Assembly (NCBI GenBank): GCA_024679065.1
Contig: JAGIQG010000009.1
Location: 109,244,001-109,308,000, forward strand
Reading direction: 5' to 3'
From: Sphyrna mokarran
Lineage: Eukaryota
Length of the DNA stretch: 64,000 nt
The number at the start of each line of letters is the position of its first letter. Position 1 is the stretch's first letter. The notes below the pieces were generated by a model. That model had not been told where the DNA came from, made no database searches, and saw nothing but the letters and a program-made list of their open reading frames with translations. This document shows positions 24,085-62,730 of this stretch, piece by piece. The position numbers were made by a program, and so were the translations under genes.

Positions 24085-24355
24085 AGGGACCCGGGCTCAA
24101 TTCCGACCTCAGGTCACTGTCTGTGCGGAGTCTGCACATTCTCCCCATGTCTGCATGGGCTTCCTCCGGGGGCTTCGGTTTCCTCCTGGAGTCCAAAAGA
24201 TGTACGGATTGACTGTACTAAATTGGCCATTAGTGTTGGGGGACTAGGAAGTTAATTATGTGGGGTTGTGCAGATTGGCTCTGGGTGGGATTGTGGCCAG
24301 TGCAGGCTCAATGGGCTGAATGGCCTCCTTCTGCAGTATAGGGATTCTATGATTC
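24085..24355 (+). mobile_element. V-SINE (HE1-like), 5'-truncated
   Basis: B box, V-SINE body and CR1-like tail. Confidence 0.78.
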
Positions 24356-24776
24356 TCTCGGTTTGCACACTAGCTTCCACTGGAGTGTTGCACAACGTCC
24401 TGACTGTACCTGCACAGAGAATCCTCAACTGTCACACGTATAAATTCAGAACTTACCAATAGGAAAATGTCATTGACCCAACAAGCCTATTTCCCCCTCC
24501 CCCCCCGGCAAGATTCAAGTCACCTTCAGTCACATTCTCAATCTGGGACATCCAAAATCCTCCCTCAGTGTGTGTGGAAGGAAAGTGGCCATTGCCATAT
24601 TCCGGAATATTCTGCCCTGTGAGGTTGAACACAATAAATGAACGCGTGTCATGGTATTTATGGAGCAGTGTTGTGGTGGATTGAGGAGTGATGGGCTGAA
24701 GGGCCTCTCTCTCTCTGGACTGTAACGTTCTGCGAAATGCTTTGAAGATTCTTCATCATTGTGTCTTGTGTTTCAG

Positions 24777-24803
24777 CTGCTGAGCGAGTCATCACTGCCG
24801 CAG
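24777..24803 (+). CDS. Gene A microexon 6 (27 nt) AAERVITAA
   Basis: gtgtttcAG / CAG|GTGAGA. Confidence 0.85.
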
Positions 24804-24894
24804 GTGAGAGAAACACTTTCCCATCGCTTTACCAGGCCTCACATTGAGGAAATTGTCTCCCAGCCACTTCCTTCATGGTTTAGATTAACCCAAA

Positions 24895-25535
24895 TGGGAG
24901 GACCATCCAGTGGGTGGGAAATGAGACTGGGCGGACCATCCAGTGTTTGGGATATGAGACTGGGAGGACCATCCAGTGGGTGAGATATGAGACTGGGAGG
25001 ACCATCCAGCGGGTGAGATATGAAACTGGGAGGACCATCCAGTGGGTGAGATATGAGACTGGGAGGACCATCCAGTGGGTGGGATATGAGACTGGGAGGA
25101 CCATCCAGTGGGTGAGATATGAAACTGGGAGGACCATCCAGCGGGTGGGATTGAGACTGGGGAGGACCATCCAGTGGGTGGGATTGAGACTGGGAGGACC
25201 ATCCAGTGGGTGGGATTGAGACGGGGAGGACTATCCAGTGGGTGGGATATGAGACTGGGAGGACCATCCAATGGGTGGGATATGAGACTGGGAGGACCAA
25301 CCAGTGGGTGGATATGAGACTGGGAGGACCATCCAGTGGGTGGGATATGAGACTGGGAGGACCATCCAGTGGGTGGGATATGAGACTGGGAGGACCATCC
25401 AGTGGGTGGGATATGAGACTGGGAGGACCATCCAGTGGGTGGGATATGAGACTGGGAGGACCATCCAGTGGGTGGAATATGGAACTGGGAGGACCATCCA
25501 GTGGGTGGGATATGGAACTGGGAGGACCAACCAGT
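24895..25535. repeat. 33-bp minisatellite GAGACTGGGAGGACCATCCAGTGGGTGGGATAT
   Basis: About 19 copies. Confidence 0.96.
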
Positions 25536-25821
25536 TAAACATCATGAACCTGAGGGCACAGATTCAAAATGGTGGGTGAAAGAAGGAATAATGATGTAAA
25601 GAAAACATTTTAACCCAAAGTGTGGTTAGAGTCTGGAAGGGAAATCCCTGAGAAGGTGGAGGATGAGCTTCGATCGAGGTATTTACAGGGGAATTGGATC
25701 GTTAATTGAAACGAGAGGATGTGTGTGGTGACCGGGATAAGGCAGGGTTGTGGGACTAGATAGAATAGTCTTTCAGAGGCGTCGTCATGGTAACCGTGAA
25801 ATTGTCGTCAGAAGGGATTTA

Positions 25822-26125
25822 GCTGGGGAGGCAGTGGTATGGCGGTGTTATAATCTAGCAACCCAGTGTTCGAGTCCCACAACTTTGAATTCAGTAAATA
25901 TCTGAAGTTTGATGATCATAAAACCAGTGCCGATTGTCATAAAACCCATCTGGGTCCCTTTAGGGAAGGAAATCTGCCGTCCTTACCCTGTCTGGCCTAC
26001 ATGTGACTCCAGAGCCACAGCAAAGTGGTTGACTTTTAAATACCTTCTGAAATGGCCGAGGAAGGTCGGTTGAAGGGAAGGTAGGGATGGGCAACAAATG
26101 ATGGCCTTGCCAGCGATGCCCACAC
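25822..26125 (+). mobile_element. tRNA-like SINE (second family; further copies ~33800-34110, 57520-57870, 58210-58820, 61030-61215)
   Basis: B box gttcgagtcc; shared core tagggaaggaaatctgccgtccttacc..ggcctacatgtgactccag; tail gggatgggcaa..gccagcgatgcccac. Confidence 0.7.
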
Positions 26126-26474
26126 TCTATCTACACATTCATCACCACCACCTGCACCGAGAAGGTCTACACATTCTTCAGCCCCGGGGGGGATTATTTT
26201 CCTTCAATTATATTGAACTCATTAATTGAATCATTCCTTAATCTTCGAAAGACAATCAACTACAAAGCAGACAGGATTGACCCCTGTTAGTCTTGGTTAC
26301 ATCGGGTGGTACCCACACCAAGGCAAGGAAGGCAACGCACACATGGATTGGATGGGCCAAATGGCCTCCTCTTGTGCTGTACCGTGCCGATTCTCTTCCC
26401 CCCATCTCCTGTGTTTGTCATCTCATTCCCAGTGATTTTTGGGCCTGACCTATGATCTCCTTTTGTGTTGCCAG

Positions 26475-26989
26475 TTCCGGTGACCTTCGACCCCGAGAGC
26501 GCCAACCCCTACCTGGCAGTCTCGAAGGACCGGCTGACTGTGACGTTCAACGACGAATGGCAGAACCTTCCGGCCAACCCCAAGAGGTTCAACTCCCGCC
26601 TCTTCGTGATCGCCAACGAGGGGTACGAGGCGGGCAGCCACTACTGGGAGGTGCTGGTTGACAGCAAGCCAGACTGGGACCTGGGAGTGGTTAAAGGGAC
26701 CATCTCCAGGGACGAGTGGATCACCCTGAGCCCGGAGAACGGCTTCTGGACCATCGGGAAGCGGGGCAACAACTACGAGGTTAACTCCAACTCCCCCGAA
26801 CCCATCTCGTGCCCGGTGACCACCCAGAAAATCGGCATCTACCTGAATTACGAGGAGGGCATGGTTGGCTTCTACAATGTCGATGACATGATGCTAATCT
26901 ACAGCTTCACCACCACCTTCTCCGAGAAAGTCTACCCATTCTTCAGCCCCTGGGGATCGAAAGAGGAAATGAAAATCTCCCCCCTCTAA
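26475..26989 (+). CDS. Gene A terminal B30.2 (PRY-SPRY) exon
   Basis: VTFDPESANPYLAVS..NPKRF..HYWEV..WDLGV..PENGFW..KIGIYLNYEEG..VYPFFSP; stop at 26989; total CDS 1491 nt. Confidence 0.97.
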
Positions 26990-40327: not shown

Positions 40328-40409
40328 ATGCTTCGTATCCTGCAAGGGCTGGATATCCGGATTTCCAAAATGTTTCTCCTGCTTCCGATTCTTCTTTGGA
40401 TCTTTCACG
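40328..40409 (+). CDS. Butyrophilin-like gene B, coding exon 1: signal peptide MLRILQGLDIRISKMFLLLPILLWIFH (exon starts ~40319)
   Basis: ATG in ACAATG context, hydrophobic core, donor CACG|GTAAGA phase 1, in frame with the IgV exon. Confidence 0.85.
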
Positions 40410-40577: not shown

Positions 40578-40937
40578 ACACGGCAGCGGATTTTGTGGTG
40601 ACGGCACCACCAGAGCCGGTCGTGGTTGCGGTTGGCAGGGACGTAGTCCTGGACTGCCAGCTGGTACCAGCCAAAAACTTGGACAGGATGGAAATCCGCT
40701 GGATCAGCAAATTTGGCTACGCCGCACCCGTCCACATGTACAAGAATGGGATAGAGGATCTGACGCACCAACCCCCGGAGTACCGAGACCGCACCGAGCT
40801 GTTCCTCAACCAGATCGGACAGGGGAATCTCTCCCTCAAACTCAGGAATGTCCGTGTCTCTGACAAGGACATCTACAAGTGCTTTGTGGCATTTGCCAGT
40901 AAACACGATGAGGTCAAAATATCCCTCAACGTGGCAG
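40578..40937 (+). CDS. Gene B IgV exon
   Basis: DTAADFVVTAPPEPVVVAVGRDVVLDC..MEIRW..VHMYKNG..QPPEYRDRTELF..GNLSLKLRNVRVSDKDIYKC; 360 nt, AG/GT junctions. Confidence 0.96.
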
Positions 40938-43701: not shown

Positions 43702-43986
43702 GTACGGGCCAGCAGCCGTGGATCGGGATGGAGGGTTACACGACAGATGGCGTCAGGCTGGGTTGCCGGTCAGAGCGCTGGTTCCCGCAGCCGCCCGTCC
43801 GCTGGGTAAACGGGCAGGGAGGGAATGTTAATGCCCAGCCACAGACCCAGTACCAGGAGGACCCACAGGGACTGATGGCGGTTCAAAGCTTCATCGAAGT
43901 CCCCAAACAGTCCACGAACGAGTACGCCTGTATCATCGACAACAAAGACCTGAAGGAGACACGAGAGGCCCACATCTGGATTGCAG
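43702..43986 (+). CDS. Gene B IgC exon
   Basis: GTGQQPWIGMEGYTTDGVRLGCRSERWFPQPPVRW..GLMAVQSFIEV..YACIIDNKDLKETREAHIWIA; 285 nt. Confidence 0.95.
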
Positions 43987-44029: not shown

Positions 44030-46105
44030 GGGGATGGTGGGGGGGAGGGGGTTAGGGACGGGGAGGGTGGGGGAGGGGGGAGGGGGGGTTAGGGACGGGG
44101 GGACGGGGAGGGTGGGAGAGGGGGGTTAGGGACGGGGAGGGTGGGGAGAGGGGGGTTAGGGACGGGGAGGGTGGGGGAGGGGGTTAGGGACGGGGAGGGG
44201 AGGGGGGGTAGGGAGGGGAGGGTGGGAGGGGGGTTAGGGAGGGAGGGAGGGGGGTTGGAGGGGGGGTGGGGGAGGGGGGTTAGGGTGGGGAGGGGGGGAG
44301 GGGGGAGGGGGGGAGGGTGGGGGGGGGGTTAGGGAGGGGAGGGTGGTTAGGGAGGGGGGTTAGGGACGGGAGGGTGGGGAGGGGGGGGGGGGTTGGGGAG
44401 GGGGAGGGGGGTTAGGATGGGGAGGGTGGGGGTTAGGGAGGGGAGGAGGGGGGAGGGGGGAGGGACAGGGAGGGTGGGGGGAGGGGTGGGAGGGGGTTGG
44501 GGGGGGGGGTGGGGGAGGGGGTTGGGGGGGAGGGTGGGGGAGGGGGTTGGGGGGGAGGGTGGGGGAGGGGGTGAGGGGGGGGAGGGGTGGGGGGAGGGGG
44601 TTGGGGGGGGGGTGGGGGAGGGGGTTGGGGGGGAGGGGCGGGTTGTGGGGGAGGGTGGGGGAGGGGGTTGGGTGGGGGAGGGGGGGGGGGGAGGGTGGGG
44701 GGAGGGGGTTGGGGGGGAGGGTGGGGGAGGGGGTTGGGGGGGGAGGGGGGGGGGGGGTTGGGGGGGGAGGTGGGGAGGGGTGGGGGGGAGGGTGGGGGAG
44801 GGGGTTGGGGGAGGGTGGGGGAGGGGTTGGGGGGGGAGGGTGGGGAGGGGGTTGGGGGTGGAGGGGGGGGAGGGGGGTGGGGGGGAGGGGGGGAGGGGTG
44901 GGGGGAGGGGGTGGGGGGGGGGGGGTGGGGGAGGGGAGGGGTGGGAGGGGGAGGGGGTTGGGGGGGAGGGGGGGGGAGGGGGTGGGGGAGGGGGTTGGGG
45001 GGGAGGGGGGGGGGGGAGGGGGTTTGGGTGGGGGGGAGGGGGTGGGGGGGAGGGTGGGGGGGGAGGTGGGGGGGGAGGGGGTGGGGGGGAGGGTGGGGGA
45101 GGGGGTTGGGGGGGAGGGGTGGGGGAGGGGGTTGGGGGGGAGGGTGGGGGAGGGGGTTGGGGGGGAGGGTGGGGGAGGGGGTGGGGGGGAGGGTGGGGGA
45201 GGGGGTTGGGGGGGAGGGGGGGGAGGGGGGTTGGGGGGAGAGGGGGGGGAGGGGGGGGGGGAGGGTGGGGAGGGGGGTTGGGGGGGAGGGGGGGGGGGGT
45301 GGGGGGGAGGGGGTTGGGGGGGGAGGGGGTGGGGGGGAGGGGGTGGGGAGGGGGGGGGGGGGAGGGGGGTTGGGGGGGAGGGTGGGGAGGGGGTTGGGGG
45401 GGGAGGGGGTGGGGGAGGGGGTTGGGGGGGAGGGGGTGGGGGAGGGGAGGGGGGAGGGTGGGGGAGGGGGTTGGAGGGGAGGGGGTGGGGGAGGGGGGGG
45501 GGAGGGGTGGGGGAGGGGGTTGGAGGGGAGGGGGGGGGGAGGGGGTTGGGGGGGAGGGTGGGGGAGGGGGTTGGAGGGGAGGGGGTGGGGAGGGGGGTGG
45601 GGGAGGGGGGGGGGGGGTTGGAGGGGAGGGGGGGGGGGAGGGTGGGGGAGGGGTGGGGAGGGGAGGGGGTTGGGGGGGAGGGTGGGGGAGGGGGTTGGGG
45701 GGAGGGTTGGGGGTGGGGGGGGGGAGGGGGGTTGGGGGAGGGTGGGGGAGGGGGTGGGGAGAGAGGGTGGGGGGGGGGTGGGGGAGGGGTTGGGGGGAGG
45801 GGGGTGGGGAGGGGGTTNNNNNNNNNNNNNNNNNNNNNNNNNNNNNNNNNNNNNNNNNNNNNNNNNNNNNNNNNNNNNNNNNNNNNNNNNNNNNNNNNNN
45901 NNNNNNNNNNNNNNNNNNNNNNNNNNNNNNNNNNNNNNNNNNNNNNNNNNNNNNNNNNNNNNNNNNNGGTGGGGGGAGGGGGGTGGGGGGGGGTGGGGGA
46001 GGGGGGGGGGGGAGGGAGGGGGTTAGGTGTGGGGGAGGGGGTTAGGGACGGGGAGGGTGGGGTGGGGGTTAGGAATGGGGTTGGGGGAGCAGGTTGGGGG
46101 AGGGT
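44030..46105. repeat. ~2-kb G-run repeat (GGGGTTGGGGGGAGGGTGGGGGA-like) containing assembly gap 45818-45967
   Basis: Directly visible. Confidence 0.95.
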
Positions 46106-46423: not shown

Positions 46424-46543
46424 ACGTCTTCTTCCCCCATCCTTCTGGGTGGATGGTTGCTTTCTGGATCCTGTTCTCCCTGGTAGTTGCTGCATGCTGT
46501 CTCGTGTTTTGGTTCTATCGAAAATTACGGAGTGAGATCCAAG
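46424..46543 (+). CDS. Gene B transmembrane exon DVFFPHPSGWMVAFWILFSLVVAACCLVFWFYRKLRSEIQ
   Basis: 120 nt like gene A's TM exon; DxFFPH conserved; donor CAAG|GTGAGA. Confidence 0.94.
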
Positions 46544-46682: not shown

Positions 46683-46709
46683 CGTTAGAGAAATCTTCAG
46701 GCTTGCTTG
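46683..46709 (+). CDS. Gene B microexon 1 (27 nt) ALEKSSGLL
   Basis: tctttacAG / G|GTAAGT. Confidence 0.87.
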
Positions 46710-47079
46710 GTAAGTGGTGTTTAATGAGACTGCGGGATATGGACTGAAATCACAGTCTGTCTCCGTGTCGATTTCCTAGTTTGGAGGATTTCACAGTCTG
46801 GCCCAAAATGATATCGTATCTGTCCCCAGACCGTCCCACTCTACCTTACTGTGCTCACCCTCCACCCAGAGACCCTCTATCCTTACCTGTGTCACACACC
46901 GTTACTATTTCAATATCTCCTCACTGCCCCCCTCTTGCCGCCCTCGTTCCCTGATTTATTTTCCTTTCGCTGTCAGACTGAGACAGAGAGTTCCTGCCGT
47001 TTGGGATGAGGGGCAGTGGTTTGGGGGAGAGGGCGAAGGCTCTCTTCTGATTTAATGCTGTTCTTTTGTCCTGTTACAG

Positions 47080-47106
47080 AAAACCATAAGCTGCGGGAGG
47101 AAATCG
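47080..47106 (+). CDS. Gene B microexon 2 (27 nt) ENHKLREEI
   Basis: ctgttacAG / G|GTGAGT. Confidence 0.88.
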
Positions 47107-48249
47107 GTGAGTAACCATTAGTAACGGAGAGTTGAATATTGGGGGGGGAGCATCAGAAGCCGATGATGTAGAATTGCAGTTGTGGTGTTAGAGAGAAGAG
47201 GCTAGCGATATAACTCTGAACTATCTGGGTCTGAGTGTCTCCGGGGAGATTCAGAAAAATTTGCATTTGTGTAGCAGCACTCGTGTCCGCAGGATTTCCC
47301 AACCCAGTTTGCAGCCAATGTAAGAAACAGCAACAAGAGGCCATTCAGCCCCTTGACCCTGCTCTGCCATTCAATACTATCATGGCTGATCTTCTCAAGT
47401 GCACTTCTCCTATATTATCCTGGCAACTAAAATACTGTCAAGCTGTGCATTTGTCTGGATCAGTACTGAGGCAGTTGCGGCAATGCCATCCTCGTGGGGG
47501 ATTGCTGCAGAGCGCCGAGATATCCATTGTGACGAGGACTGCCCCTGGTTCAACCTCTCCGTGTGTGCCGAGTTTCTGTAGGACGTCAAGAAGCTTAACA
47601 CCATCCACTTGATGGCTACCCTTCCCATAAACATTCACTGCCTCCATCACCGATGCTCAGTGACAGCTGTGTGTACCAGCTATAAGATGCACTGTAGGAA
47701 CACACCAGTGTTCCTTAGGCACCATCTTCCAAATGTACAAATACTTCCCTGTAGAGGGACAAGGGCAGAAGCTACCTGGGAACTCCACCATCTGGAGGTT
47801 CCCCTCCAAGTCACACACCATCCTGACGTATCAGCCTTTCCTTCCTGTTGCTGGGTCAAAATCTTGGAATTCCCTCCCTCACAGCACTGTGGGTGTACCT
47901 ATTCAAAGAACAAAACAGCATGGGAAACAGGCCCTTCGGCCCAACGAGCCCGCGCCGCCACCTCGATGTCCCCTATTCCTCAGGAACTCCAGCGGGTTGA
48001 AAGAAGGCAGCTCACCAGCACATTCTCGAGGGGTAGTTAGGGATTGGCAATAAATGCTGCTCTAGCCAATGACACCCACATCCTGTGACTAACTCAGAGA
48101 TGGCAGATCCACACCTCCTGGGGAAGAGAGTTCCAAAGAATCTTAGCACTTACTGCTCTGGGAATGGGAGCAATAAATATTGGACAAGATGGGGAGCTGG
48201 GATTGGAGATGTAAAGTGGCAGGAGGATGTTAATATTGTTGGGCCCAAT

Positions 48250-48380
48250 TCGTCTGTCAGCCTGTCAGTGAGGCCCAGCCTATTGGTGAGGCCCAGCCTA
48301 TTGGTGAGGCCCAGCCTGTCAGTCAGTCAGTGAGGCCCAGCCTGTCAGCCTGTCGGTGAAGCCCAGCCTGTCTGTCAGTA
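48250..48380. repeat. Short tandem repeat GTGAGGCCCAGCCT core
   Basis: About 5 copies. Confidence 0.8.
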
Positions 48381-48399
48381 CGCAGTGACTGTGAGATTT

Positions 48400-49127
48400 T
48401 GCTGTGCAGTGTGGGATCTTGCTGTGCATTGTGGAGTCTTTCTGTGCACTGATTGTGGGATCTTGCTGTGCAGTGATTGTGGGATCTTGTACCTTAATTA
48501 TGGGATCTTGCTGTCTGTCGTGGGATCTTGCTGTGCGCCAAGGGCTATACGCCATGGGATCTTGCTGTGCGCTGTGGGATCTTGCTGTGCGCTGTGGGAT
48601 CTTGCTGTGCGCTGTGTGATCTTGCTGTGCTCTGAGGGATCTTGCTGTGCTCTGAGGGATCTTGCTGTGCTCTGAGGGATCTTGCTGTGCTCTGAGGGAT
48701 CTTGCTATGCGCTGTGTAATCTTGCTGTGTTCTGAGGGTTCTTGCTGTGCTCTGTGGGTTCTTGCTGTGCTCTGTGGGTTCTTGCTGTGCACTGTGTGCT
48801 CTTGCTGTGCTCTGAGGGATCTTGCTATGTGCTGTGTAATCTTGCTATGCGCTGTGTAATCTTGCTGTGTTCTGAGGGAGCTTGCTGTGCGCTGTGTAAT
48901 CTTGCTGTGCTCTGTGTGATCTTGCTGTGCACTGTGTGATCTTGCTGTGCACTGTGTGCTCTTGCTGTGCTCTGAGGGATCTTGCTATGCGCTGTGTAAT
49001 CTTGCTGTGTTCTGAGGGAGCTTGCTGTGCGCTGTGTAATCTTGCTGTGCGCTGCGGGATCTTGCTGTGCGCTGCGGGATCTTGCTGTGCGCTGCGGGAT
49101 CTTGCTGTGCGCCGTGGGATCTTGCTG
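48400..49127. repeat. 20-bp minisatellite CTGTGGGATCTTGCTGTGCG
   Basis: About 35 copies. Confidence 0.96.
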
Positions 49128-49280
49128 AGTGCTAATTGGCAGCTTCCTCTCCTGCTTGATGCCAGTGACTGTGGTTTTATTTCTGTGAGTGATTTGGAGA
49201 GGTTTGAACGCTGGGAGATATTGTACCAACATCGACATTTCCCCTCAGAGTTTAACACTTTTCCTTTCTTTCATTTTCAG

Positions 49281-49307
49281 AAAACGAGAAGCACAAGTCA
49301 AGCCTGG
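49281..49307 (+). CDS. Gene B microexon 3 (27 nt) ENEKHKSSL
   Basis: cattttcAG / G|GTAAGT. Confidence 0.87.
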
Positions 49308-49470
49308 GTAAGTGAACAGAAACGGGGAATTCGGGTCGTCACATTGTGCTCTGAGCTCAATAAGCAACAGGTCAAAGGTTTCAGGCTTGGGGAGTGACTC
49401 CGAAATCAGAGAATTTAATCAGATATTTAATTTATCATTGAACCGAGGAATTTCCACTTCTTTTTTCCAG

Positions 49471-49497
49471 AGTGTGAACGACTGCGACAAGAGTTAG
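49471..49497 (+). CDS. Gene B microexon 4 (27 nt) ECERLRQEL
   Basis: ttttttccAG / AG|GTAAGA. Confidence 0.88.
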   Translation, partial: SVNDCDKS

Positions 49498-50141
49498 GTA
49501 AGAATTTAAATCAACGGTGTGTCAAAGAGAAGGAGAAACCCTGTNNNNNNNNNNNNNNNNNNNNNNNNNNNNNNNNNNNNNNNNNNNNNNNNNNNNNNNN
49601 NNNNNNNNNNNNNNNNNNNNNNNNNNNNNNNNNNNNNNNNNNNNNNNNNNNNNNNNNNNNNNNNNNNNNNNNNNNNNNNNNNNNNNNNNNNNNNNNNNNN
49701 NNNNNNNNNNNNNNNNNNNNNNNNNNNNNNNNNNNNNNNNNGAGCAAAGACCCTGTTGGTGAGAGGGTGACAGAGAGAGAGAGACCGTGTTGGTGACAGA
49801 AAGAGAGAGAGAGAGAGAGAGCAAAGACCCTGTTGGTGAGAGGGTGACAGAGAGAGGGGTAACTCCATTGGGTGAGTGAATGACACAGTGAGATGGAGGG
49901 GGATGTTCTGGGTTGGGATTGGATGTGGACAGGAAGGAACCATTTGTGTATCGAGACGCTGAGTGACTGCAAATTGCTGCCCTTCACACTCTCTGGATGC
50001 ACATTGTGTCAGTGACAGAGTGAATGTGTGTGTTGTGGAGAATTGGCTGTGGACATCTCCATCACTCTGGCTGTGAGAGTGTAGGATGTGTGACTGTGGG
50101 CTGCCCTGTATCACATGTGCTGTTTATTTTTTTTGTTACAG

Positions 50142-50168
50142 ATCAAGTCAAGAATGTTGGGAAATTAG
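50142..50168 (+). CDS. Gene B microexon 5 (27 nt) DQVKNVGKL
   Basis: tttgttacAG / AG|GTGAGT. Confidence 0.87.
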   Translation: MKSRMLGN

Positions 50169-51183
50169 GTGAGTTATCCTGTGTTCAGTGAAAAACTGCA
50201 ATTATTCAGATTAGAATATTTTGATTTGGTCTCAGACTGCCTTAATGCAATTTAAAAAGCACCTTCCCTGTTTAAAGTTTATTCATTAGTCACAAGTAGG
50301 CTTACATTAACACTGCAATGAAGTTACTGTAAAAATCCCCTGGTCACCACACTCCAGTGCCTGTTCGGGTACACTGAGGGAGAATTTGTCGTGGCCAATG
50401 CACCAGCACATCTTTTAGACTGTGGGAGGAAACCCACCCAGACACGTGACATTGCACATGACAAATAATCTCCTCACCAAATCGCTCTCTTGCTCTGCAC
50501 TCCCCTCTCCTACGACCCCAGGCACCGGGACGCACACACGTCTCTTTCAGAGAGACCAGAAATCTTTATCCAGTCCTCTCACACAATCCCTGCTGTATAC
50601 AATTGGACAACGTTTTGCTTTCAAACCTGTCCGTGGCCTTGTCTCCTCCATATCTCTGCAATCTCCTCTGATATACAAACCTGCAGGAGATCTGAGTTCC
50701 TCCTCTTCCGCCCTCTCATGTATCCCCAAATTTAATCACTCTTTCATTGGTGGCTACGCCTCTGTTTTGGTCCTAAATTCTGGAATCCTCTCCAGAAAGA
50801 TCTTCTTCCCTCCTGCCGCCTCAATGCACCTCCTTTAGACATTCCTTAGCACTGACCCTTTTGCTGAACATAAACTGTGTTTTATAATGAGCTTGGACAG
50901 CACTGTGGGACTCTGCAGTTATTAATTAGAGATGAAATGTTTTCTATAAGTTGTTTCATAATAAACATAGAACATTCCCTGACAAATGAGCAAAGACACA
51001 CAGAGTAACAGGCGCTAAAAGGAAACCGTTTCTCATTTACGAAGCAGGTTCTTGTTAAAAACATTTCCCTGTTAACTGAACCGTGTTTACATTTTCAGTT
51101 CTATTTTTGGTACAGTTAATGTAATTGTCTTAAATGACCCAGCCCCCTCTGTGACAGTTTTCTCTCTCTGTTTTTCTTTACAG

Positions 51184-51210
51184 AACGTGAAGCTCTTCAG
51201 CTGGAGTTTG
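51184..51210 (+). CDS. Gene B microexon 6 (27 nt) EREALQLEF
   Basis: ttctttacAG / G|GTAAGA. Confidence 0.87.
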
Positions 51211-51427
51211 GTAAGAGAATATTGCTGAAAGCTCCAGTCACTGGAATTTTAGATCAAAACTACTTTATTTATTAATGTTGTGTGTCCATGAATGATGAAA
51301 ACTACGACACAGTTTTGGGGATGGACCTACACCTCAGGGACTGCAGCAGTTCAAGAAGGAAGCTCCCATCAGTATCTTCTCACGGGCAATTAGGGATGAG
51401 CAAGGAATGCAGTCTAGCCTTGCTTTC

Positions 51428-52482
51428 AAACCCCGTGCTGTACCTGTCCTTGGAGTGTTTGATGGGGGGGACAGTGTAGAGGGAGCTTTACTCTGTATTT
51501 AACCCCGTGCTGTACCTGTTTGGGGAGTGTTTGATGAGAGACAGTGTAGATTGAGCTTTACTCTGTATCTAACCCCGTGCTGTATCTGTCCTGGGAGTGC
51601 TTGATGGGGACAGTGTAGAGGGAGCTTTACTCTGTATCTAACCCCGTGCTGTACCTGTCCTGGGAATGTTTGATGGGGACAGTGTAGAGGGAGCTTTACT
51701 CTGTATCTAACCCCGTGCTGTACCTGTCCTGGGAGTGTTTGATGGGGGACAGTGTAGAGGGATCTTTACTCTGTATCTAACCCCGTGCTGTACCTGTCCT
51801 GGGAGTGTTTGATGGGGGACAGTGTAGAGGGAGCTTTACTCTGTATCTAACCCCGTGCTGTACCTGTCCTGGGAGTGTTTGATGGGGACAGTGTAGAGGG
51901 AGCTTTACTCTGTATCTAACCCCGTGCTGTACCTGTCCTGGGAGTGTTTGATGGGGACAGTGTAGAGGGAGCTTTACTCTGTATCTAACCCCGTGCTGTA
52001 CCTGTCCTGGGAGTGTTTGATGGGGGACAGTGTAGAGGGAGCTTTACTCTGTATCTAACCCCGTGCTGTACCTGTCCTGGGAGTGTTTGATGGGGGACAG
52101 TGTAGAGGGAGCTTTACTCTGTATCTAACCCCGTGCTGTACCTGTCCTGGGAGTGTTTGATGGAGGACAGTGTAGAGGGAGCTTTACTCTGTATCTAACC
52201 CTGTGCTGTACCTGTCCTGGGAGTGTTTGATGGGGACAGTGTAGAGGGAGCTTTACTCTGTATCTAACCCCGTGCTGTACCTGTCCTGGGAGTGTTTGAT
52301 GGGGGGACAGTGTAGAGGGAGCTTTACTCTGTATCTAACCCCGTGCTGTACCTGTCCTGGGAGTGTTTGATGGGGACAGTGTAGAGGGAGCTTTACTCTG
52401 TATCTAACCCCGTGCTGTACCTGTCCTGGGAGTGTTTGATGGAGGACAGTGTAGAGGGAGTTTTACTCTGTATCTAACCCCT
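51428..52482. repeat. 69-70 bp satellite AACCCCGTGCTGTACCTGTCCTGGGAGTGTTTGATGGGGACAGTGTAGAGGGAGCTTTACTCTGTATCT
   Basis: About 15 highly similar copies. Confidence 0.97.
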
Positions 52483-53079
52483 GTACCTTGGTTTTCTACT
52501 TCTGATAATGCGGGAGGATTTTAAGCTTTGTGCTCTGACACATGGCCACAGACTTTACGGAGGTAGTGTGAGGTTTTGTGACTGGGTTAACTATAGGTTT
52601 GAGGATGGTAGTTTGAATGTGAGAGGGCTGTTTTAGGCAGGATAGTATCAGACTGTTGGTGATGAGTTCCTGGTTTTCTGTTCTCCTGATGCAGGAGTGG
52701 GTGGGCTGAAGGATTTTGGACAATACGGATCTGTGAGAAATACAGGTTCCGCCATCACATTCCTGGCAACGAGTGTTCCTGGGGTGACCCCAGTTAAACC
52801 GGTGGTGTACCAGGCTACGCGTGGCACAGGCAGTGTGGTAGATAGGTGATACTGCGATGTGTGAGGGAGCAGACAGGAGCCCAGGGTCTGTAACTGATAC
52901 CTTCCTCTTGTGAGTGTAAACTCTTCCTGCCTAGATAAACAGTGGGAATCTCAGCAGGGGTGGGATTTCGGGGAACCACACACGGTCATATCGCCTTCCG
53001 GAAGGTTCTTTAACACCTATTTTTTAACACCTATTTTTCACCTCTTTAACACCTATTTTTTTTCCCCTCCCTTGTACAG

Positions 53080-53106
53080 AAATGGAGAAGACAGTCATTA
53101 AAGCAG
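53080..53106 (+). CDS. Gene B microexon 7 (27 nt) EMEKTVIKA
   Basis: cttgtacAG / CAG|GTAAGA. Confidence 0.87.
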
Positions 53107-53304
53107 GTAAGAGGGGCAATGGGAGTTTCCTGCTTTTTGTGAGGGGGGGAGGGGGAGTGGGGGGGGTGGGACACAGGGTCCTGGGTTGCCAACTCTGGGG
53201 TGCATTCCTGGAGGTTTCATCACATGACCTCCAACCAATCAAACGGTGCTTCCTAACCGTCATGTTGTTTTACAATGAGAGGTATTTGAAGAGGCTACAC
53301 ACAA

Positions 53305-53410
53305 CTTCTCAATGCCCCCCTCTCTGCTTCTCAATTCCCCCCTCTGCTTCTCAATGCCCCCTCTGCTTCTCAATGCCCCCTCTGCTTCTCAATCCCCCCT
53401 CTGCTTCTCT
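53305..53410. repeat. ~21-bp tandem repeat CTCTGCTTCTCAATGCCCCC
   Basis: About 5 copies. Confidence 0.85.
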
Positions 53411-53741
53411 GCTCTTGGAGACTGATTGTAGTGTCCAAATCATTGATTATTCATTGCTGGTACCAACGCCGGCATCTTTACAACATCAGCTGGTACAATG
53501 CCAGGAGAAGGTGGGCAGTGACTATTTGCTGCTTCCTGGCTGGAAGATGTCAGTGACCTCTTGGTGGTCATTGGCTTCTGGGTCACAGTCTGTGCTCAGG
53601 AGATTAATGGAAGCTACTTACTCCCCAGGCCTGACACCAGGATTGAACTGACCCAGTGGAGCTACTGAGATTCGAGTTCGTGTCTCCTAATGTGGGCGAG
53701 GTTTCACCGTGGCAACAGCTGGCACAGAGTTGGGGGGGGGG

Positions 53742-54002
53742 GGGCACAGTGATTAGCACTACTGCTTCACAGTGCCCGGGACTCGGTCTTAAATCGGGTG
53801 ACTGTTTGCACGTTCTCCCCGTGTCTGCATGGGTTCCCTCCCATGTCTGAATGAATGAAGGTTAGATGGATTGGCCGTGTTAAATATGTATGGTAAAAAT
53901 GTGGGGCTGAGTGGGAAGGAGAGCCTGGGTAAGATGCTCTGTTGGAAATTCGGTGCAGACTGGATGGGCTGATTGTCCTCCTTCTGCACTGTGGGAATTC
54001 TC
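53742..54002 (+). mobile_element. V-SINE (HE1-like)
   Basis: Head ggcacagtgattagcactactgc, V-SINE body, tail gatgggctga..ctgcactgt. Confidence 0.78.
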
Positions 54003-54167
54003 TGGTATTCCTGGATCTGGTTTTATTTCACACAGACAGCGTGAGGGCAGGTTATAAACACTGACCTGTATTCAGAGAGTGCGGCGTGGAGGGAAGCAAA
54101 TACTGAGAGGCAGGAAGTGGGAGAAATGATCTTGTTTGTAATTGATTACTTTCCTGCTCTCTTACAG

Positions 54168-54194
54168 AACACCAACTATTCAAGGCAGAAGTTG
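54168..54194 (+). CDS. Gene B microexon 8 (27 nt) EHQLFKAEV
   Basis: ctcttacAG / G|GTAAGT. Confidence 0.87.
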
Positions 54195-54249
54195 GTAAGT
54201 CAAATAATCAAAATCTACATCTGTGAGCATCTCACATTTCCCTGTAGCT

Positions 54250-55010
54250 GTGTCTCCGATACTGTCTCTGACTCTCTATCCGTGTCTCTCTATCTCTCCA
54301 TCCTTCTCTCTCTGTCTCTCCATTCATGTCACTCTGTCTTTCCATCCGTGTCTCTCTGTCTTTGTCTCTATCCTTGTCTCTCTCAATGTCTCAGTGTCTG
54401 CGTCTTTCCCGGTGTTTGCATTGCTCGCGGTGTCTGTGTCTCTCTGGAAATGTCTTTCTGGCTATGTCTCTCTTGGTGTCTCTCAGTCTCTCTGGGTGTC
54501 TGCGTTCTCAGTGTTGTGTCTCGGGGTGTGTCACCATGTTTGTCTCTCTCTGTATTTCTCGGTGTATGTCTGTCTGTCTCTGTTTCTTGGTGTGTGTGTG
54601 TGTGTCTGTCTTTGTCTCTCGGTGTGTGTTTGTCTGTCTCTGTCTCTCGGTGCGTGTGTGTCTGTCTGTCTCTGTCTCTCGGTGTGCGTGTGTCTGTCTC
54701 TGTCTCTCGGTGTGCGTCTGTCTGTCTCTGTCTCTCGGTGTGCGTGTGTCCGTCTCTGTCTCTGTGTGTGTGTGTCCGTCTCTGTCTCTCGGTGTGTGTG
54801 TGTGTCCGTCTCTGTCTCTCGGTGTGTGGTGTGTCCGTCTCTGTGTCTCTCGGTGTGTGTGTGTCCGTCTCTGTCTTCGTGTGTGTGTGTGTCGTCTCTG
54901 TCTCTCGGGGTGTGTGTGTGTCCGTCTCTGTCTCTCGGGGTGTGTGTGTCCGTCTCTGTCTCTCGGGGTGTGTGTGTCCGTCTCTGTCTCTCGGGGTGTG
55001 TGTGTCCGTC
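54250..55010. repeat. TG/TC compound repeat (GTCTCTGTCTCTCGGTGTGTGTGTCC-like)
   Basis: Directly visible. Confidence 0.92.
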
Positions 55011-55123
55011 TGAATATTCTGAATATTGTTCTTTCTGTTGACCTGTTGATAATTTTTTAATAAGACTGAATAAAGGTTGTGTGTGTTGCTGCCTGTTCAA
55101 ACTTCTTCAATCTTGTCTTCCAG

Positions 55124-55150
55124 ATAAAGAGAAAGCAGCAGTCGCAGCAA
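55124..55150 (+). CDS. Gene B microexon 9 (27 nt) DKEKAAVAA
   Basis: gtcttccAG / A|GTATGT. Confidence 0.8.
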
Positions 55151-55269
55151 GTATGTAACCCGGAAAGAGAGGGATTTCATTACTCTGTTATCTTTGCAAT
55201 GGGGGGGGGAGGTCTGTGGGACACTAACGGAGAGTAAATGGAAATTCGGGAACAAACTGCAAGTATTTC

Positions 55270-56960
55270 TCTGCACATCTTCTCTCCTTCTGTTTTTCCA
55301 CTCTCTATCTCTCATTCCCACTCTCCTACTCTCCCCATCCCCTCCATCTTCTCCTCTCAGTCTGCCACAGTCACCATCTCAATCCTCCCCTTTCCACTCT
55401 CCACCCCTCCTTCCTTTCTCTCCGTTTCTACTTTCCTATTCAGCTTTCTCTTCCCCCTCTCCATCTTTGCGATTCTCTTTTCCAAACTCCCTTATTCTCC
55501 CTGCTCTTTCTTTCTCTCCATTTCTTTCTCTCTTCCCTCTATCTCTCTATCCCCTCTCTCCACTTTCCCATCCCCTTCTTCCCCCCCTCTCTCTCTCTCT
55601 ATCTGTATCCTCTCTCCCTCTCTCTGCCCCCTCCTCCCATCCCTCAGAACCCTCTCTCTGCCCCCTCCCTCCGACTCCTCCCTCCAACCCCTCCCTCTGA
55701 ACCATTTCTCTCCAACCCCCCCACTCACTCCACCCTCAGCCATCGCTCTCCCCTTTGCCCCACCCACACCCCCTTACCCCCTCTCCTTTGCCCCATTGCC
55801 CGCTGCCCCTCGCCCACTCCCTATCTCCCTGGCCAGCCCCCCTTACCCCTTCGTCCTCCCCCTCGCCCTCTCCCTAACCCCCTCTCACTCTCCCCACCTC
55901 ATGCCCCCATCCTCCTCCCCCCTCCCTCCACCTCATCCTCTCGCTCCCTACCCCTCGACCCTTCCACTCACCTCCTTCTCTAGCCTCATGCCCCTCCCCC
56001 CTCACTCTCACTCTCCCCATCTCTCCCTCGCACACTCACCCTGACTCCTCCTTGCCATCCCCCCTCGATCCCCCGTCCGCTCCTCCTTGCTCCTCCCCTC
56101 GTCCTACCCTCTTGCACCCACCCCCTCATCCCTTTTTCTTTCCCTCATTCTTTCCCCTCCCTCTCCCCCCCAACCCCTCATTCCACCCCCTTGCTCGCTT
56201 CTTGCCCATCTCCTTGCCCCACACCCTGCCCCCGCATCTCCACACACCACTCTTGACCCCCGGCTCACCCTCTCGCCTACAGCCTCGTCTCTCCTGCCCC
56301 TTGCCCCCACCCCTCGCCTCCTCCTCCTTGCCCTCCCCCTCGCTCCCTCTCCCTTTCCCCCTTCTCCTCAGGCCCACCCCTTGCTCCTTCCGCTCACCTC
56401 CCACCCCTCTTGCTCCTGCCCCCAGCCCCTCGCCCCATATCCACCCCCCCTGCCCTGCCCCCTTATCTTGGTTCCCTCGTCCCTCCACCCCCTCCTTCTG
56501 CCCCTTCGCCATTGCCCCTGCCCCTGCCTCACCCCTACCCCCTCAGCCTACCCCCTTGCCTATGCCCCACCCCTCCCCCCAGCCCATGTCCCCATGCCCC
56601 CCCCGCCCTGCCCCTGCAGCCTCGCATGAACCCCGTTGCATCCACCCCCTCTCGTCTTCCATTTGCCCTTCCCTTTGCCCTCCCCTCTGCCCCCCTGCCT
56701 CCCTTCTCCCCGTAACCCTCGCCTGTCCTGCCCTGCCCTCCTGCGCCTCTGCCCTCCACCTCCTCTGGCCCCCTCTGCTTCTACCTCTTCTGCGTCTGCC
56801 CCCTCTCCCCTACTCCTCTGCCCTCTGGCCCTTCTGCCACCTGCCCCTTCTTCCCCTTGTATCCCCCTCTGCCCCCTTGTATCCCCCTCTGCCCCCTTTA
56901 TCCCCCTCTGCCCCCTCTATCTCCCCTCCAGCTTCTCCTACCTCTCTATCTCTCCTGCCC
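55270..56960. repeat. ~1.7-kb C/T-rich low-complexity tract
   Basis: Directly visible. Confidence 0.93.
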
Positions 56961-57139
56961 AGCTGGTAAGCTGGGCTGTTGAAGACACCATTGAGAAGAT
57001 GCTGCAGTATTGGTGGAGGGAGAGGGGAGCGGAGGGAACGTTTCCACTCAGTGTTGTCAGTCTATCACTATCTGTCAGTCATTCTGGGGACTGAATTGAA
57101 AGGGGGTATGTGTAAATGCGGATTGAAATCTGTAACTGA

Positions 57140-57275
57140 CTAAAAGCAAATTACTGCAGATGCTGGAATCTGAAACAAAGACAGAAAGTGCTGGAAAGTC
57201 TCAGCGGGTCTGACAGGCCCTGTGGGGAGAGAGAGAGAGTAGACCGAATGTTTAAATGACCCTTCCTCAGAGCTG
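57140..57275 (-). mobile_element. Penelope-like short repeat (also 770-862 +, 27172-27300 -, 30980-31052 -)
   Basis: Shared tgctggaatctgaaacaaa..tgctggaaa.tctcagc plus CTGANGA-stem-GAAA-type motif. Confidence 0.6.
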
Positions 57276-57439
57276 CAGGAAACTGACTGAGACACAGACT
57301 GAATGTTATTAACTGAAATGGGCTTCTCTCTACTTTCACTACTACTGGTGGGGGTCAGGCATTTAGTAAACCGATTAATCATTCTAAGATGTTCGCCATT
57401 TGATTTTAACCCATTTTTCTGATTACTTTTTGCCTGCAG

Positions 57440-57466
57440 AATATCAGAAGCTTCACACTGAGTTTG
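57440..57466 (+). CDS. Gene B microexon 10 (27 nt) KYQKLHTEF
   Basis: ttgcctgcAG / G|GTGAGT. Confidence 0.86.
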
Positions 57467-59215
57467 GTGAGTTGCTTGTCAGTACAAACCTAGTTTCATT
57501 TGGTTACAAACACTTAGATGCGTAGCGGTGTTGTCGTGGTAATCCAGGATTAATGCTCTGGAACACCGGTTCGCATCCCACCGTGGCTGTTAGCAGAATT
57601 TTTGTTTTACTTAAACTCAACTAATAAATCTGCTTAAATAGAAAGCTTGCCTCAGTGCCAGTGACCATGTATCACTTTACGTCACTTCGTAATAAAGGAC
57701 TAATGCCCTTCAGAGAGGGAAATCTGCCATTCTTACCTGGTCTGGCCTACCAGAGTCAAAGCAATGTGGTTGATTCTTGAATGCCCTCTGCATGAGAGTT
57801 AGGGGTCTTGCAAGGGTAGTTAATGCTGGGCAACTAATGTTGGCCATGCCAGCGATGCCTACATCGCATGTAAGTGTAGAGAAACAGTTGAGTCTGTTTT
57901 GGGCCATTACTTGTCCTCGATTGGGGATTGCGTAGCAAGCAAGGTTCTGTCTGGTGTTGCAAACAACATGTCTCCTGAACAAGAAACTTCCAGCCCCATC
58001 AGGTTCTCCCTGATGATTGGACCAGCTAATTGGACAAGGATTACCATGGTGAATGAAGGGGGCAAAATGATTTTCCTCAGACTTTTGGTTAATGCCCCTT
58101 ATGTCGGCAAAGGAGAGGGTCCTGTGTGCAGCTAAATGTAACTTCTAGCGCACATTAGTGAGCCCACACTGCATGCCTGAATGATCATCTCAAAGATAAT
58201 CGACCTGCCCGGGGGCCTCAGGTTCGAATCCCACCATTGCCGCAACAAAAATCTGGAATTAAAATTCAAGTAATGACCATGAAATGATTGTTGATTTGTA
58301 AAAACCCACTTGATCCACTAATGTTCTTTAGGACAGGCGATGGCTGAGTACTATTATCTCTGGGCCATTAACTCAGAAACTCAGCTAATGTTCTGAGGGA
58401 CCTGGGTTCGAATCCCGCCCACAGCAGATGGTGGAATTTGAATTTACAATAAAAATATCGGGAATGGAGAATCTACTGATGACCACGAAACCATTGTTGA
58501 TTGTCAGGAAAAACCCGCATGGTTTACTATTGTCATTAAGGGGAGGGAATCTGCTGACCTTACCTGGTCTGGCCTACATTTGATTTCAGATCCACACTAC
58601 AGTGGTTGACTCTTAACTCTAAAATGGCGGAGCAAGCCACTCAGTTCAAGGGCAAATAGGGATGGGCAATAAATGCTACCAGCCACAAATGAATACATAA
58701 ATGTGCCACAAATGAATACAAAAAATTCTTCTGTATTTACCTGATCTGCGCTACATGTGACTTGCATGTGGTTAACTGCTAGTCAGTTCAAGGGCAGTTT
58801 GGGATGGCACTAAATGCCGACCGATCCGCACTCTGTTCCCATGCAATACAAATTATTGTTTCTTTAATCTTAACATTTGTCCTGATGAGACAAAAACAAT
58901 CAATGCCCAAATATCATGACATTGATGGAAGAATGATAGAAACTTACTCCGTTGAACCACTGGCTGACCATGTCCAGAATTATACTGTGACTGTTGACAT
59001 GTAAAAAATTGAACAGAAAAGTGCTGAGGTAGTAATTTTATAATGGTGGTCAGAAATGGATGGCACACCGACAGAAGATTTTCTTTATTGCTGCCATGAA
59101 TTTAAAAAATCTTGTTCATGGAGAAAAGCTGTGCCATGAAGAGGAAGGTCTGTTTGTATCACCAAGTGTGTTGAGTGAGTCTTGTTCATACTTTTCAATC
59201 TCTGTTTCCTTCTAG

Positions 59216-59242
59216 AGCAATGGAGACCTCTCGTTCTGTCAG
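59216..59242 (+). CDS. Gene B microexon 11 (27 nt) EQWRPLVLS
   Basis: tccttctAG / CAG|GTATGT. Confidence 0.84.
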
Positions 59243-59269
59243 GTATGTTCCCCAGACTGAATGCACATC

Positions 59270-59557
59270 GAACTCCTACAGTGCAGAAAGGCCATTCAGC
59301 CCATCGAGCCTGCACCAACAACAATTCCACCCAGGTTGCGTCCCCGTAACCCCGCATATTTACCCTGCTACTCCCCCTGACTCTAAGAGGCAATTTAACA
59401 TGGCCAGTCCACCTAACCTGCACATCTTTGGGGTGTGAGAGGAAACTGGAGCACTCGGTGGAAACCTGTGCAGACTGCATACAGATAGTGACTTGATGCT
59501 GGAATTGAACCTGAGTCCCTGATGCTGTGAAGCAGCAGTGCTAACCACTGTGCCATT
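59270..59557 (-). mobile_element. V-SINE (HE1-like)
   Basis: Reverse head, body and tail all present. Confidence 0.82.
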
Positions 59558-59647
59558 GTGTATGGGGTATTCACTTATTGGCATTTGTGTATTACACTGA
59601 GCCAAAGAGAACAGGAAGGTGTCGAGACCAAACGTTATCAGAGCATT

Positions 59648-59657
59648 GTATATATGT

Positions 59658-59700
<43 letters not shown>

Positions 59701-59701
59701 C

Positions 59702-59734
<33 letters not shown>

Positions 59735-59750
59735 CGTGTGTGTGTGTACA
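59648..59750. repeat. (TG)n microsatellite in a triplicated TATATATGTACG(TG)n unit
   Basis: Directly visible. Confidence 0.93.
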
Positions 59751-60113
59751 CGCATATGGATATGCACACATATATTGTAACTGAATCATAGGAGTTTGGT
59801 GTGAGAATGAAGCTCACAAACATTATGGTACAATGGGTGATCCAGCCTGAACCACAGTGCCAGAGCTCAGTGTGCTGTCTTTAATCTAACCCATTGACCT
59901 GTCTTGATTGGCTGGTCCGAAAGGAAGTTATGTCCTCAGTGACTCTCAGATTCCCGGGACACAAGCCTCCTTACTTCATCAAGGGGTAGCCCCCCTATCC
60001 CCACTCCAAATCAGGTCCTTGACTCACTAAACTGGGATGTACTTTAGCTATTGTCCCGTGTTTAGAGTATTAAAGGTTACTAATCTTCTGTCTGCTGTGT
60101 GTTTTATTGATAG

Positions 60114-60140
60114 AGCGGAAGAGGATAGAGAGTTATGCAG
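60114..60140 (+). CDS. Gene B microexon 12 (27 nt) ERKRIESYA
   Basis: tattgatAG / CAG|GTAAGA. Confidence 0.86.
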
Positions 60141-62212: not shown

Positions 62213-62730
62213 CTGCTGTGAAGATAGACCCCCGGACGGCCAACGCCAATCTGACCATCTCCCTGGATGGGCAGACTGTGAAAGGCGGAGAGACGCTGCA
62301 GGTCCCTGACAATCCAGAGCGGTTTGACTCTGCCCCATACGCGCTGGGCGAGGGCGGTTTCACAGAGGGCATGCACTACTGGGTGGTGCAGGTGGCGAAG
62401 AAGACCTACTGGGATGTGGGCGTCGCCAACGGGTCAGTCCAGCGGAAGGGCATGCCCAACCTGTGCTCGGACGCTGGCTTCTGGACGCTCGGGCGGGACA
62501 GCGAGCTGTACGGGATAAGTGATCCAAATCGCTCCCGCATCACTGTGACGGACAAACCTGAGAAGATCGGAGTGTTCCTGGAACTGGAGGCGGGTAGAGT
62601 GTCTTTTTACAACGCTGATACCATGTTCCATCTATACACTTTCAACGCCAACTTCTCGGACAAAGTCTACCCATTCTTTTGGCCTGGCTGGGATGACGCA
62701 CCCTTATCTGTCTGCCCGGTCAAGAGCTAA
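62213..62730 (+). CDS. Gene B terminal B30.2 (PRY-SPRY) exon
   Basis: AAVKIDPRTANANLTIS..PDNPERFD..GMHYWVVQV..WDVGV..GFW..KIGVFLELEAGRVSFYN..KVYPFFWP; stop 62730; total CDS 1689 nt. Confidence 0.97.

Follow-up and report, generated by a model that had tools for sequence, protein, structure and literature searches.

A ladder of twelve 27-nucleotide exons encodes a probably rod-like, conserved stalk in a butyrophilin gene of Sphyrna mokarran

Gene content and exon structure

We analysed a 64,000-nucleotide (nt) stretch of the Sphyrna mokarran genome (GenBank assembly GCA_024679065.1, contig JAGIQG010000009.1, positions 109,244,001 to 109,308,000 of the forward strand). We refer to this stretch as the window, and positions below are counted from its first letter unless given in Mb. 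It contains two neighbouring butyrophilin (BTN) genes on the + strand, gene A (13970-26989) and gene B, and it is the cytoplasmic stalk of gene B, encoded by a ladder of very short exons, that is the main subject here. All twelve peptides that an earlier note on this DNA had assigned to such exons were located on the + strand between 46683 and 60140, each corresponding to a 27-nt exon flanked by AG and GT and symmetric, with phase 1-1 borders. Together with five further exons, they form a single open frame of 562 amino acids (aa) with the architecture IgV-IgC-transmembrane (TM) segment-stalk-B30.2.

The signal-peptide exon (40328-40409) was found by tblastn with the N-terminus of the ortholog and begins with the ATG at 40328, followed by an open frame. 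The IgV exon (40578-40937) matched Pfam V-set (4.9e-11), with an alternative acceptor at 40587 that is also in frame. The IgC exon (43702-43986) matched the BTN-type domain C2-set_3 (BTN3A2-like IgC, 2e-19), this match and that of V-set being above the Pfam cut-off, and the C-terminal B30.2 exon (62213-62730, including the stop codon) matched PRY (9.1e-13) and SPRY (6.6e-20). Between the Ig domains and the stalk lies a single TM segment encoded by a 120-nt exon (46424-46543); both this exon and the signal-peptide exon agree with the ortholog and preserve the reading frame. The juxtamembrane region is predicted to be helical and is encoded by short exons, as in other butyrophilins, with a unit of 27 nt rather than 21 nt. 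The gene also shows linkage with the MHC (major histocompatibility complex): all MHC_I matches (53/53) were on the contig of the window, at 85.8-95.8 Mb, with the window at 109.3 Mb and hence at least 13 Mb away. These features support the identification of gene B as a butyrophilin, as the earlier note had proposed. Its product is identical to a butyrophilin of Mustelus asterias at 479 of 560 aligned residues, and the gene is already present in RefSeq under generic BTN names.

The twelve microexons are not all of one kind. Microexon 1 (46683-46709) encodes a linker nonad that contains a predicted helix break and stands outside the repeat; it is separated by the 370-nt ladder intron 1 (46710-47079) from microexon 2 (47080-47106), which is of an even type with a strong hydrophobic core. 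Both exons are supported by contig joints. The following ones, supported by orthologs, alternate between an odd type with a weak core (microexons 3, 49281-49307; 5, 50142-50168; 7, 53080-53106; and 9, 55124-55150) and the even type (4, 49471-49497; 6, 51184-51210; 8, 54168-54194; and 10, 57440-57466). Microexon 11 (59216-59242), also outside the repeat, encodes a Trp and a Pro in the best conserved of all nonads, with a mean of 0.92 for column conservation, and microexon 12 (60114-60140) encodes the B30.2-proximal nonad, which aligns without gaps to the segment preceding B30.2 in human BTN3A3. A splice-score scan of the 15,918 bases of the sense ladder returned 14 candidate exons of 15-40 nt, of which 12 were 27 nt long; the identical score applied to 414,000 antisense bases returned 25 candidates, none of them of 27 nt. 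Ladder intron 4 contains a 197-nt run of N, but the 324-nt spacing in contigs of relatives and the 108-aa stalks of orthologs, both described below, leave no space for a hidden thirteenth exon.

Position 2 of the exon 12 nonad (60116-60118) is Arg in the window and Trp in 15 of 15 ortholog proteins checked, in Callorhinchus too, and at the aligned site of human BTN3A3. This Arg may be a change of the species, an allele or an assembly error.

Splicing of the ladder

Contigs from four sequencing runs (X1, X2, X6 and X11) bear on the use of these exons. None of the runs is on record as RNA; we guess that they are RNA, and their contigs resemble transcripts, with exons joined at GT..AG. X1 is at least 99% alike to the window (one difference over 990 nt in the contig at the B30.2 exon), whereas X6 and X11 come from related organisms. 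The TM exon is covered in X1, X6 and X11, and the loose end of an X1 contig joins it to the IgC exon. The joint between the TM exon and microexon 1 is present in X1 and X6, and that between microexons 1 and 2 in X1, X2 and X6; in X1 both are at GT..AG and the TM intron has no cover. The distance from the TM exon to the B30.2 exon is 324 nt (12x27) in a contig of X6 (2881 nt) and in one of X11 (2352 nt), and a contig of X1 (1736 nt) extends 271 nt (10x27+1) 5' of the B30.2 exon, a length that agrees with exons 3-12. Both spacings were obtained by subtraction of record coordinates, with records paired by length and depth. The full ladder thus seems to be included in the two related organisms, in line with what the earlier note had expected. 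We found no joint skipping across exons 1-2 in the four runs, those of exons 10-12 being obscured by repeats.

X1 also contains a contig with exon 1, the entire 370-nt intron 1 and exon 2 (depth 14.2, versus 18.3 for the spliced joint), and another that runs from exon 2 into intron 2 (47107-47880; depth 13.5); the intronic X1 contigs listed near exons 10-12 have depths of 2.5-4.4. Read-through would stop after 12 aa in ladder intron 1 and after 2 aa in intron 2, so that retention of either one would yield a chain lacking B30.2. We consider this a lead only: retention was seen in a single run, the depth of contigs measures it poorly, and unspliced RNA would give an identical picture. Two AATAAA motifs occur at 48049 and 48172.

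Orthologs and stalk length in cartilaginous fish

The stalk has 108 aa in 12 species, including that of the window: the sharks Mustelus asterias, Scyliorhinus torazame, Cetorhinus, Carcharodon, Heterodontus, Hemiscyllium, Chiloscyllium punctatum and Chiloscyllium plagiosum, the skates Leucoraja and Amblyraja, and the elephant shark Callorhinchus milii. In five rays (Hemitrygon, Hypanus, two Mobula and Narcine) it has 90 aa. The gene B sequences formed a single clade in a B30.2 tree (14 of 28 rows, support 100/99) and also in one that included Callorhinchus (9 of 15 rows, support 99/98). Holocephalans and elasmobranchs separated more than 400 million years ago; therefore, twelve nonads are likely the ancestral state. 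When the 66 possible two-nonad deletions were compared, the best fits removed adjacent nonads; these were 8+9 or 7+8 in the myliobatiforms (four species), and for Narcine they were 5+6 or 4+5. Judging from these alignments, the short ray stalks are best explained by the loss of exon pairs, probably in two separate events. The earlier note had advised a survey of chondrichthyan butyrophilins for variation in microexon number; the stalk of gene B had two lengths in these species, and paralogs include odd counts (see below).

Two ortholog models were left out: P0008, a draft Chiloscyllium model with 8 nonads, was rejected because RefSeq gives 12 for that species, and P0003, a fused Scyliorhinus canicula model, because it lacks the TM segment and nonads 1-5. 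A word search with the stalk region retrieved no additional orthologs. Three carpet-shark models (P0018, P0042 and P0049) have ectodomains that group with carpet-shark gene B, stalks of 35-45 aa and a B30.2 that groups with a TRIM-like neighbour from the S. mokarran genome; they are likely chimeric genes.

An 18-residue alternation with a period of 3.6

Exons of the ladder are more alike at even than at odd lags (nucleotide likeness 0.415 vs 0.330 and amino acid score 7.1 vs -0.6, both with p 0.004 by permutation). Neighbouring exons are in fact the least alike, and the repeat unit is 18 residues rather than 9. Both sequence motifs proposed in the earlier note, one for even and one for odd exons, are each present in all five of the five exons concerned, and the odd/even split of nonads 2-10 ranked first of 126 in the window and in six of seven orthologs (fifth of 126 in Callorhinchus). 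A profile matrix showed that exons 1 and 11 are unlike the repeat and that the periodic part comprises exons 2-10. In the mean of five sequences, hydrophobicity peaked at a period of 3.60, with a power of 11.3 compared with 0.4 at 3.5, and the best period was 3.59-3.61 in all seven orthologs. Positions 7, 11, 14 and 18 of the 18-mer lie within 40 degrees of one face of the helix, as in 7+11 coiled coils; position 14 is L or F in all rows, and position 18 is I, F, V or L in nearly all. The 18-residue alternation and a period of 3.6 rather than 3.5, both put forward in the earlier note, are therefore borne out by the even/odd statistics and by the orthologs.

The same note had derived the ladder from repeated duplication of a two-exon unit. 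We infer such a duplication from the alternation of nonad types, which fits it, but DNA-level support did not follow: the alternation is confined to codon positions 1-2 (with third positions the split ranks 34 of 126), and the only traces of possible tandem duplication in the ladder introns are short stretches of intron 7 that match intron 11. With the signal in codon positions 1-2 only, duplication by pairs cannot be distinguished from selection for one helix face.

A proposed fixed spacer for the B30.2 domain

An AlphaFold2 monomer model of the Mustelus ortholog, based on an alignment of 9 rows, predicted one helix at 288-386, with a predicted local distance difference test (pLDDT) score of 71-83 over 291-370. 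The helix is broken within nonad 1 and otherwise continuous, so that the rod would be nearer 99 aa (~15 nm) than the 108 aa (~16 nm) of the earlier note, whose helical stalk the model otherwise reproduces. We propose, with a probability of roughly 0.7, that the stalk of gene B is a nearly untwisted coiled coil that acts as a fixed spacer for B30.2 and is conserved in cartilaginous fish. Two stalks would pair with 18 residues per 5 turns; nonad 1 would be a flexible joint, nonads 2-10 the rod, in which even nonads would supply a strong core (18-mer positions 11, 14 and 18) and odd nonads a weak Ala/polar one, and nonads 11-12 would dock B30.2 at ~15 nm from the membrane. Since nine residues rotate a helix by 180 degrees (2.5 turns), the working module would be the exon pair, and stalk length would be altered by pairs, and rarely. 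The hydrophobic moment at 3.6 is consistent with this: it is 0.134 for the full-length stalk and remains at 0.136-0.148 after deletion of seven of the eight adjacent pairs, whereas single deletion of any of exons 5-10 lowers it to 0.008-0.067, a result that holds partly by construction, from the arithmetic of 9 versus 18 residues. In mammalian BTNs, juxtamembrane coils are reported to govern dimer pairing (PMC10665462), and the stalks have been proposed as spacers, according to a review (PMC11969061).

Several points weigh against a fixed coiled-coil spacer altered by pairs. In the window alone, the 3.6 period is weak (p 0.33 with the Kyte-Doolittle scale, 0.043 with a binary scale), and the orthologs that reinforce it are not independent of one another. 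The AlphaFold2 model is a monomer with a mean pLDDT of 57 and a predicted template modelling (pTM) score of 0.31. After single deletions the best period becomes ~3.5, with a moment of 0.10-0.12, and a long coil might absorb the loss. The case for pair loss consists of two putative events only; except at contig joints, protein length served to place the exon borders of other species, and contigs lose rare isoforms. Paralogs of gene B do not always keep pairs either. One at 97.35-97.38 Mb has seven 27-nt stalk exons, and its seven nonads are kept in other sharks; a Stegostoma paralog model has 5 nonads, and a Mustelus paralog has two RefSeq isoforms that differ by one nonad. We accordingly rejected 'always in pairs' as a rule of the family, as the number of consecutive 27-nt exons is even in only 8 of the 11 ladders predicted in this genome and odd in the other 3.

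These Mustelus isoforms also favour the proposal of the earlier note that cells skip single 27-nt exons and so tune the stalk in 9-aa steps. Symmetric phase 1-1 exons would preserve the frame on skipping, PMC6790196 reports an isoform of macaque BTN3A from which one heptad is missing, and the draft Chiloscyllium model has 8 nonads. For gene B itself, however, we found no skipped form among the ortholog proteins or contigs examined. The 8-nonad draft lacks two pairs rather than single exons, skate single-gene gene-B proteins were 553 aa long in 7 of 7 listed cases (among the 15 of 21 cluster members listed), the 108- and 90-aa stalks are one exon pair apart, and removal of one nonad flips the hydrophobic face. 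We therefore consider tuning by single-exon skipping quite unlikely; if the gene B protein varies at all in cells, intron read-through dropping B30.2 would be the likelier way. The composition of nonads 2-10, with 43% E/K/R and odd nonads that are barely hydrophobic, also fits a monomeric, charged single alpha-helix acting as a lever, in which case the 3.6 period would be mere helix geometry and the monomer would be one long helix, as predicted. The conserved hydrophobic stripe on one face (18-mer positions 14 and 18) and the coiled-coil dimers modelled for human BTN stalks (PMC10665462) make this very unlikely in our view. An alpha/beta coiled coil of nonads seems extremely unlikely. Nine-residue repeats are known to form beta-layers (PMC4786415) and the Kyte-Doolittle scale also yields a period-9 peak, but the repeat is 18 and not 9, adjacent exons are the least alike, the helix at 288-386 is predicted without breaks, and almost all of the beta-layer proteins described are homotrimers.

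Finally, the stalk might serve mainly for heteromeric pairing, either with the product of gene A or with a shortened chain from gene B, rather than for homodimer spacing. Genes A and B are adjacent here, and fused models of their orthologs in four public annotations (Narcine, Scyliorhinus canicula, Carcharodon and Amblyraja) indicate that the adjacency is conserved; BTN heteromers are described as common in mammals (PMC11969061, PMC10665462), and X1 contains the intron-retaining contigs. Nevertheless, the microexons of gene A encode 50 aa, which would not match gene B along the full rod, and the retention was seen in one run and may reflect unspliced RNA. We regard this option as possible though not favoured; it is compatible with the fixed-spacer explanation and not exclusive of it.

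Comparison with known systems

Mammalian BTN3A1/A3 and BTN2A1 share with gene B the IgV-IgC-TM-helical stalk-B30.2 architecture and the linkage to the MHC, and they are its best PDB matches (E 1e-80 to 1e-74), with a gapless alignment of the last nonad; no structure of the gene B stalk was present among the 60 of 90 PDB matches listed. The stalk of mammalian BTNs is likewise encoded in several very short exons, as reported in PMC6790196, but these are few heptad exons instead of twelve 27-nt exons with a period of 3.6; we found no paper giving the sizes of human BTN exons in nt. Counted on the alignment, the stalk of gene B measures ~117 aa from the end of the TM segment, compared with ~68 aa in BTN3A3. 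The 150 best representatives yielded 83 IgC-TM-stalk-B30.2 units with a median stalk of 44 aa; stalks of at least 100 aa were present in 11, which include two orthologs of gene B and several models that seem to be faulty. BTN2-like models of Dromiciops (P0125) and Chinchilla (P0146) have repeat-built stalks of 509 aa (period 3.48) and 99 aa (period 3.54), respectively.

Chicken BG genes resemble gene B in layout. According to PMC4046983 and PMC5938342, their cytoplasmic coiled-coil tail is encoded by a ladder of 13-36 phase-split microexons, the true repeat is offset from the exon borders, and intron read-through truncates the tail. Their exons are described as 21 nt long (some 18 or 24 nt) and varying in number with gene and haplotype, in proteins with one Ig domain and no B30.2. 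Gene B, by contrast, has 12 of 12 exons of 27 nt, organised in pairs, a period of 3.6 instead of 3.5, a conserved length, and both IgC and B30.2; it is not a member of that family. The contrast that the earlier note had drawn with other vertebrates was nonetheless overstated, given that 27 nt is the common size of stalk exons in butyrophilins of this genome, and given the 13-36 microexons of chicken BG (PMC4046983) and some mammalian models with stalks of at least 99 aa. At the structural level, coiled coils with a delocalised stutter (14+4 = 18) have the same 18-residue period and 3.6 residues per turn (PMC9369452), matched in gene B by the exon structure (2 x 27 nt); a straight helix has 3.63 residues per turn, just above 3.6, as given in PMC4786415.

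Butyrophilins of cartilaginous fish on the MHC chromosome have been reported (PMC12841164); the main text of that report does not use the words 'exon' or 'shark', and its supplements may list these proteins. We found no published account of the gene B ladder in the main text of the best-ranked, mostly open-access literature.

Possible implications

Butyrophilins evolve fast, and the length of their stalk is usually taken as a variable, minor trait; the number of heptads was called unlikely to affect function in PMC12841164. The conservation of 108 residues in holocephalans, sharks and skates argues instead for selection on stalk length or register, which makes this stalk a natural test case for the spacer model, with an exon size that tracks a non-heptad coiled-coil period. 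That microexon-built coiled-coil tails were already known (chicken BG, 21 nt) limits the surprise. A broader scenario, which we consider rather unlikely as a whole, is that gene B has been kept as a single copy since the ancestor of cartilaginous fish, with a ruler-like stalk and with a B30.2-less chain made by retention of intron 1 or 2, and that with gene A it forms the best candidate for an ancestral gamma-delta T-cell pair. If so, exon sizes would encode helix geometry (7, 11 or 9+9 residues making whole turns), and splicing would provide the B30.2-less partner for which humans use a separate gene (BTN3A2). The conserved MHC-linked pair would in any case be a place to seek shark ligands of gamma-delta T cells.

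Gene A, paralogs and genomic setting

Gene A has six microexons on the + strand (20620, 21166, 21969, 22908, 23873 and 24777) of 27, 27, 21, 21, 27 and 27 nt. Its upstream neighbour shows the same series, and the other ladders predicted for butyrophilins of this genome are 27,27 (four genes), 33,27,27, 33,27, seven 27s, a single 27 and the twelve 27s of gene B; 27 nt is thus their usual stalk exon unit. An origin of this unit in neighbouring TRIM-like genes was unsupported, as the candidate exons ahead of B30.2 in the ones that we examined measure 23 nt and 33 nt. We also rejected as a recent duplication the identical 33-nt exon present twice in a paralog at 111.627-111.630 Mb; it sits in a 711-bp, 100% identical duplicate beside a 100-N gap and is likely an assembly artefact.

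The contig of the window carries 11 of 33 IgV matches and, at 91-113 Mb, a very large B30.2 cluster; the majority of the 150 listed B30.2 matches belong to it. This cluster adjoins and interleaves with the MHC class I-like genes at 85.8-95.8 Mb. Within gene B, the intron between the IgC and TM exons contains ~2 kb of G-rich low-complexity sequence (44060-46100), and many other minisatellites occur in the introns.

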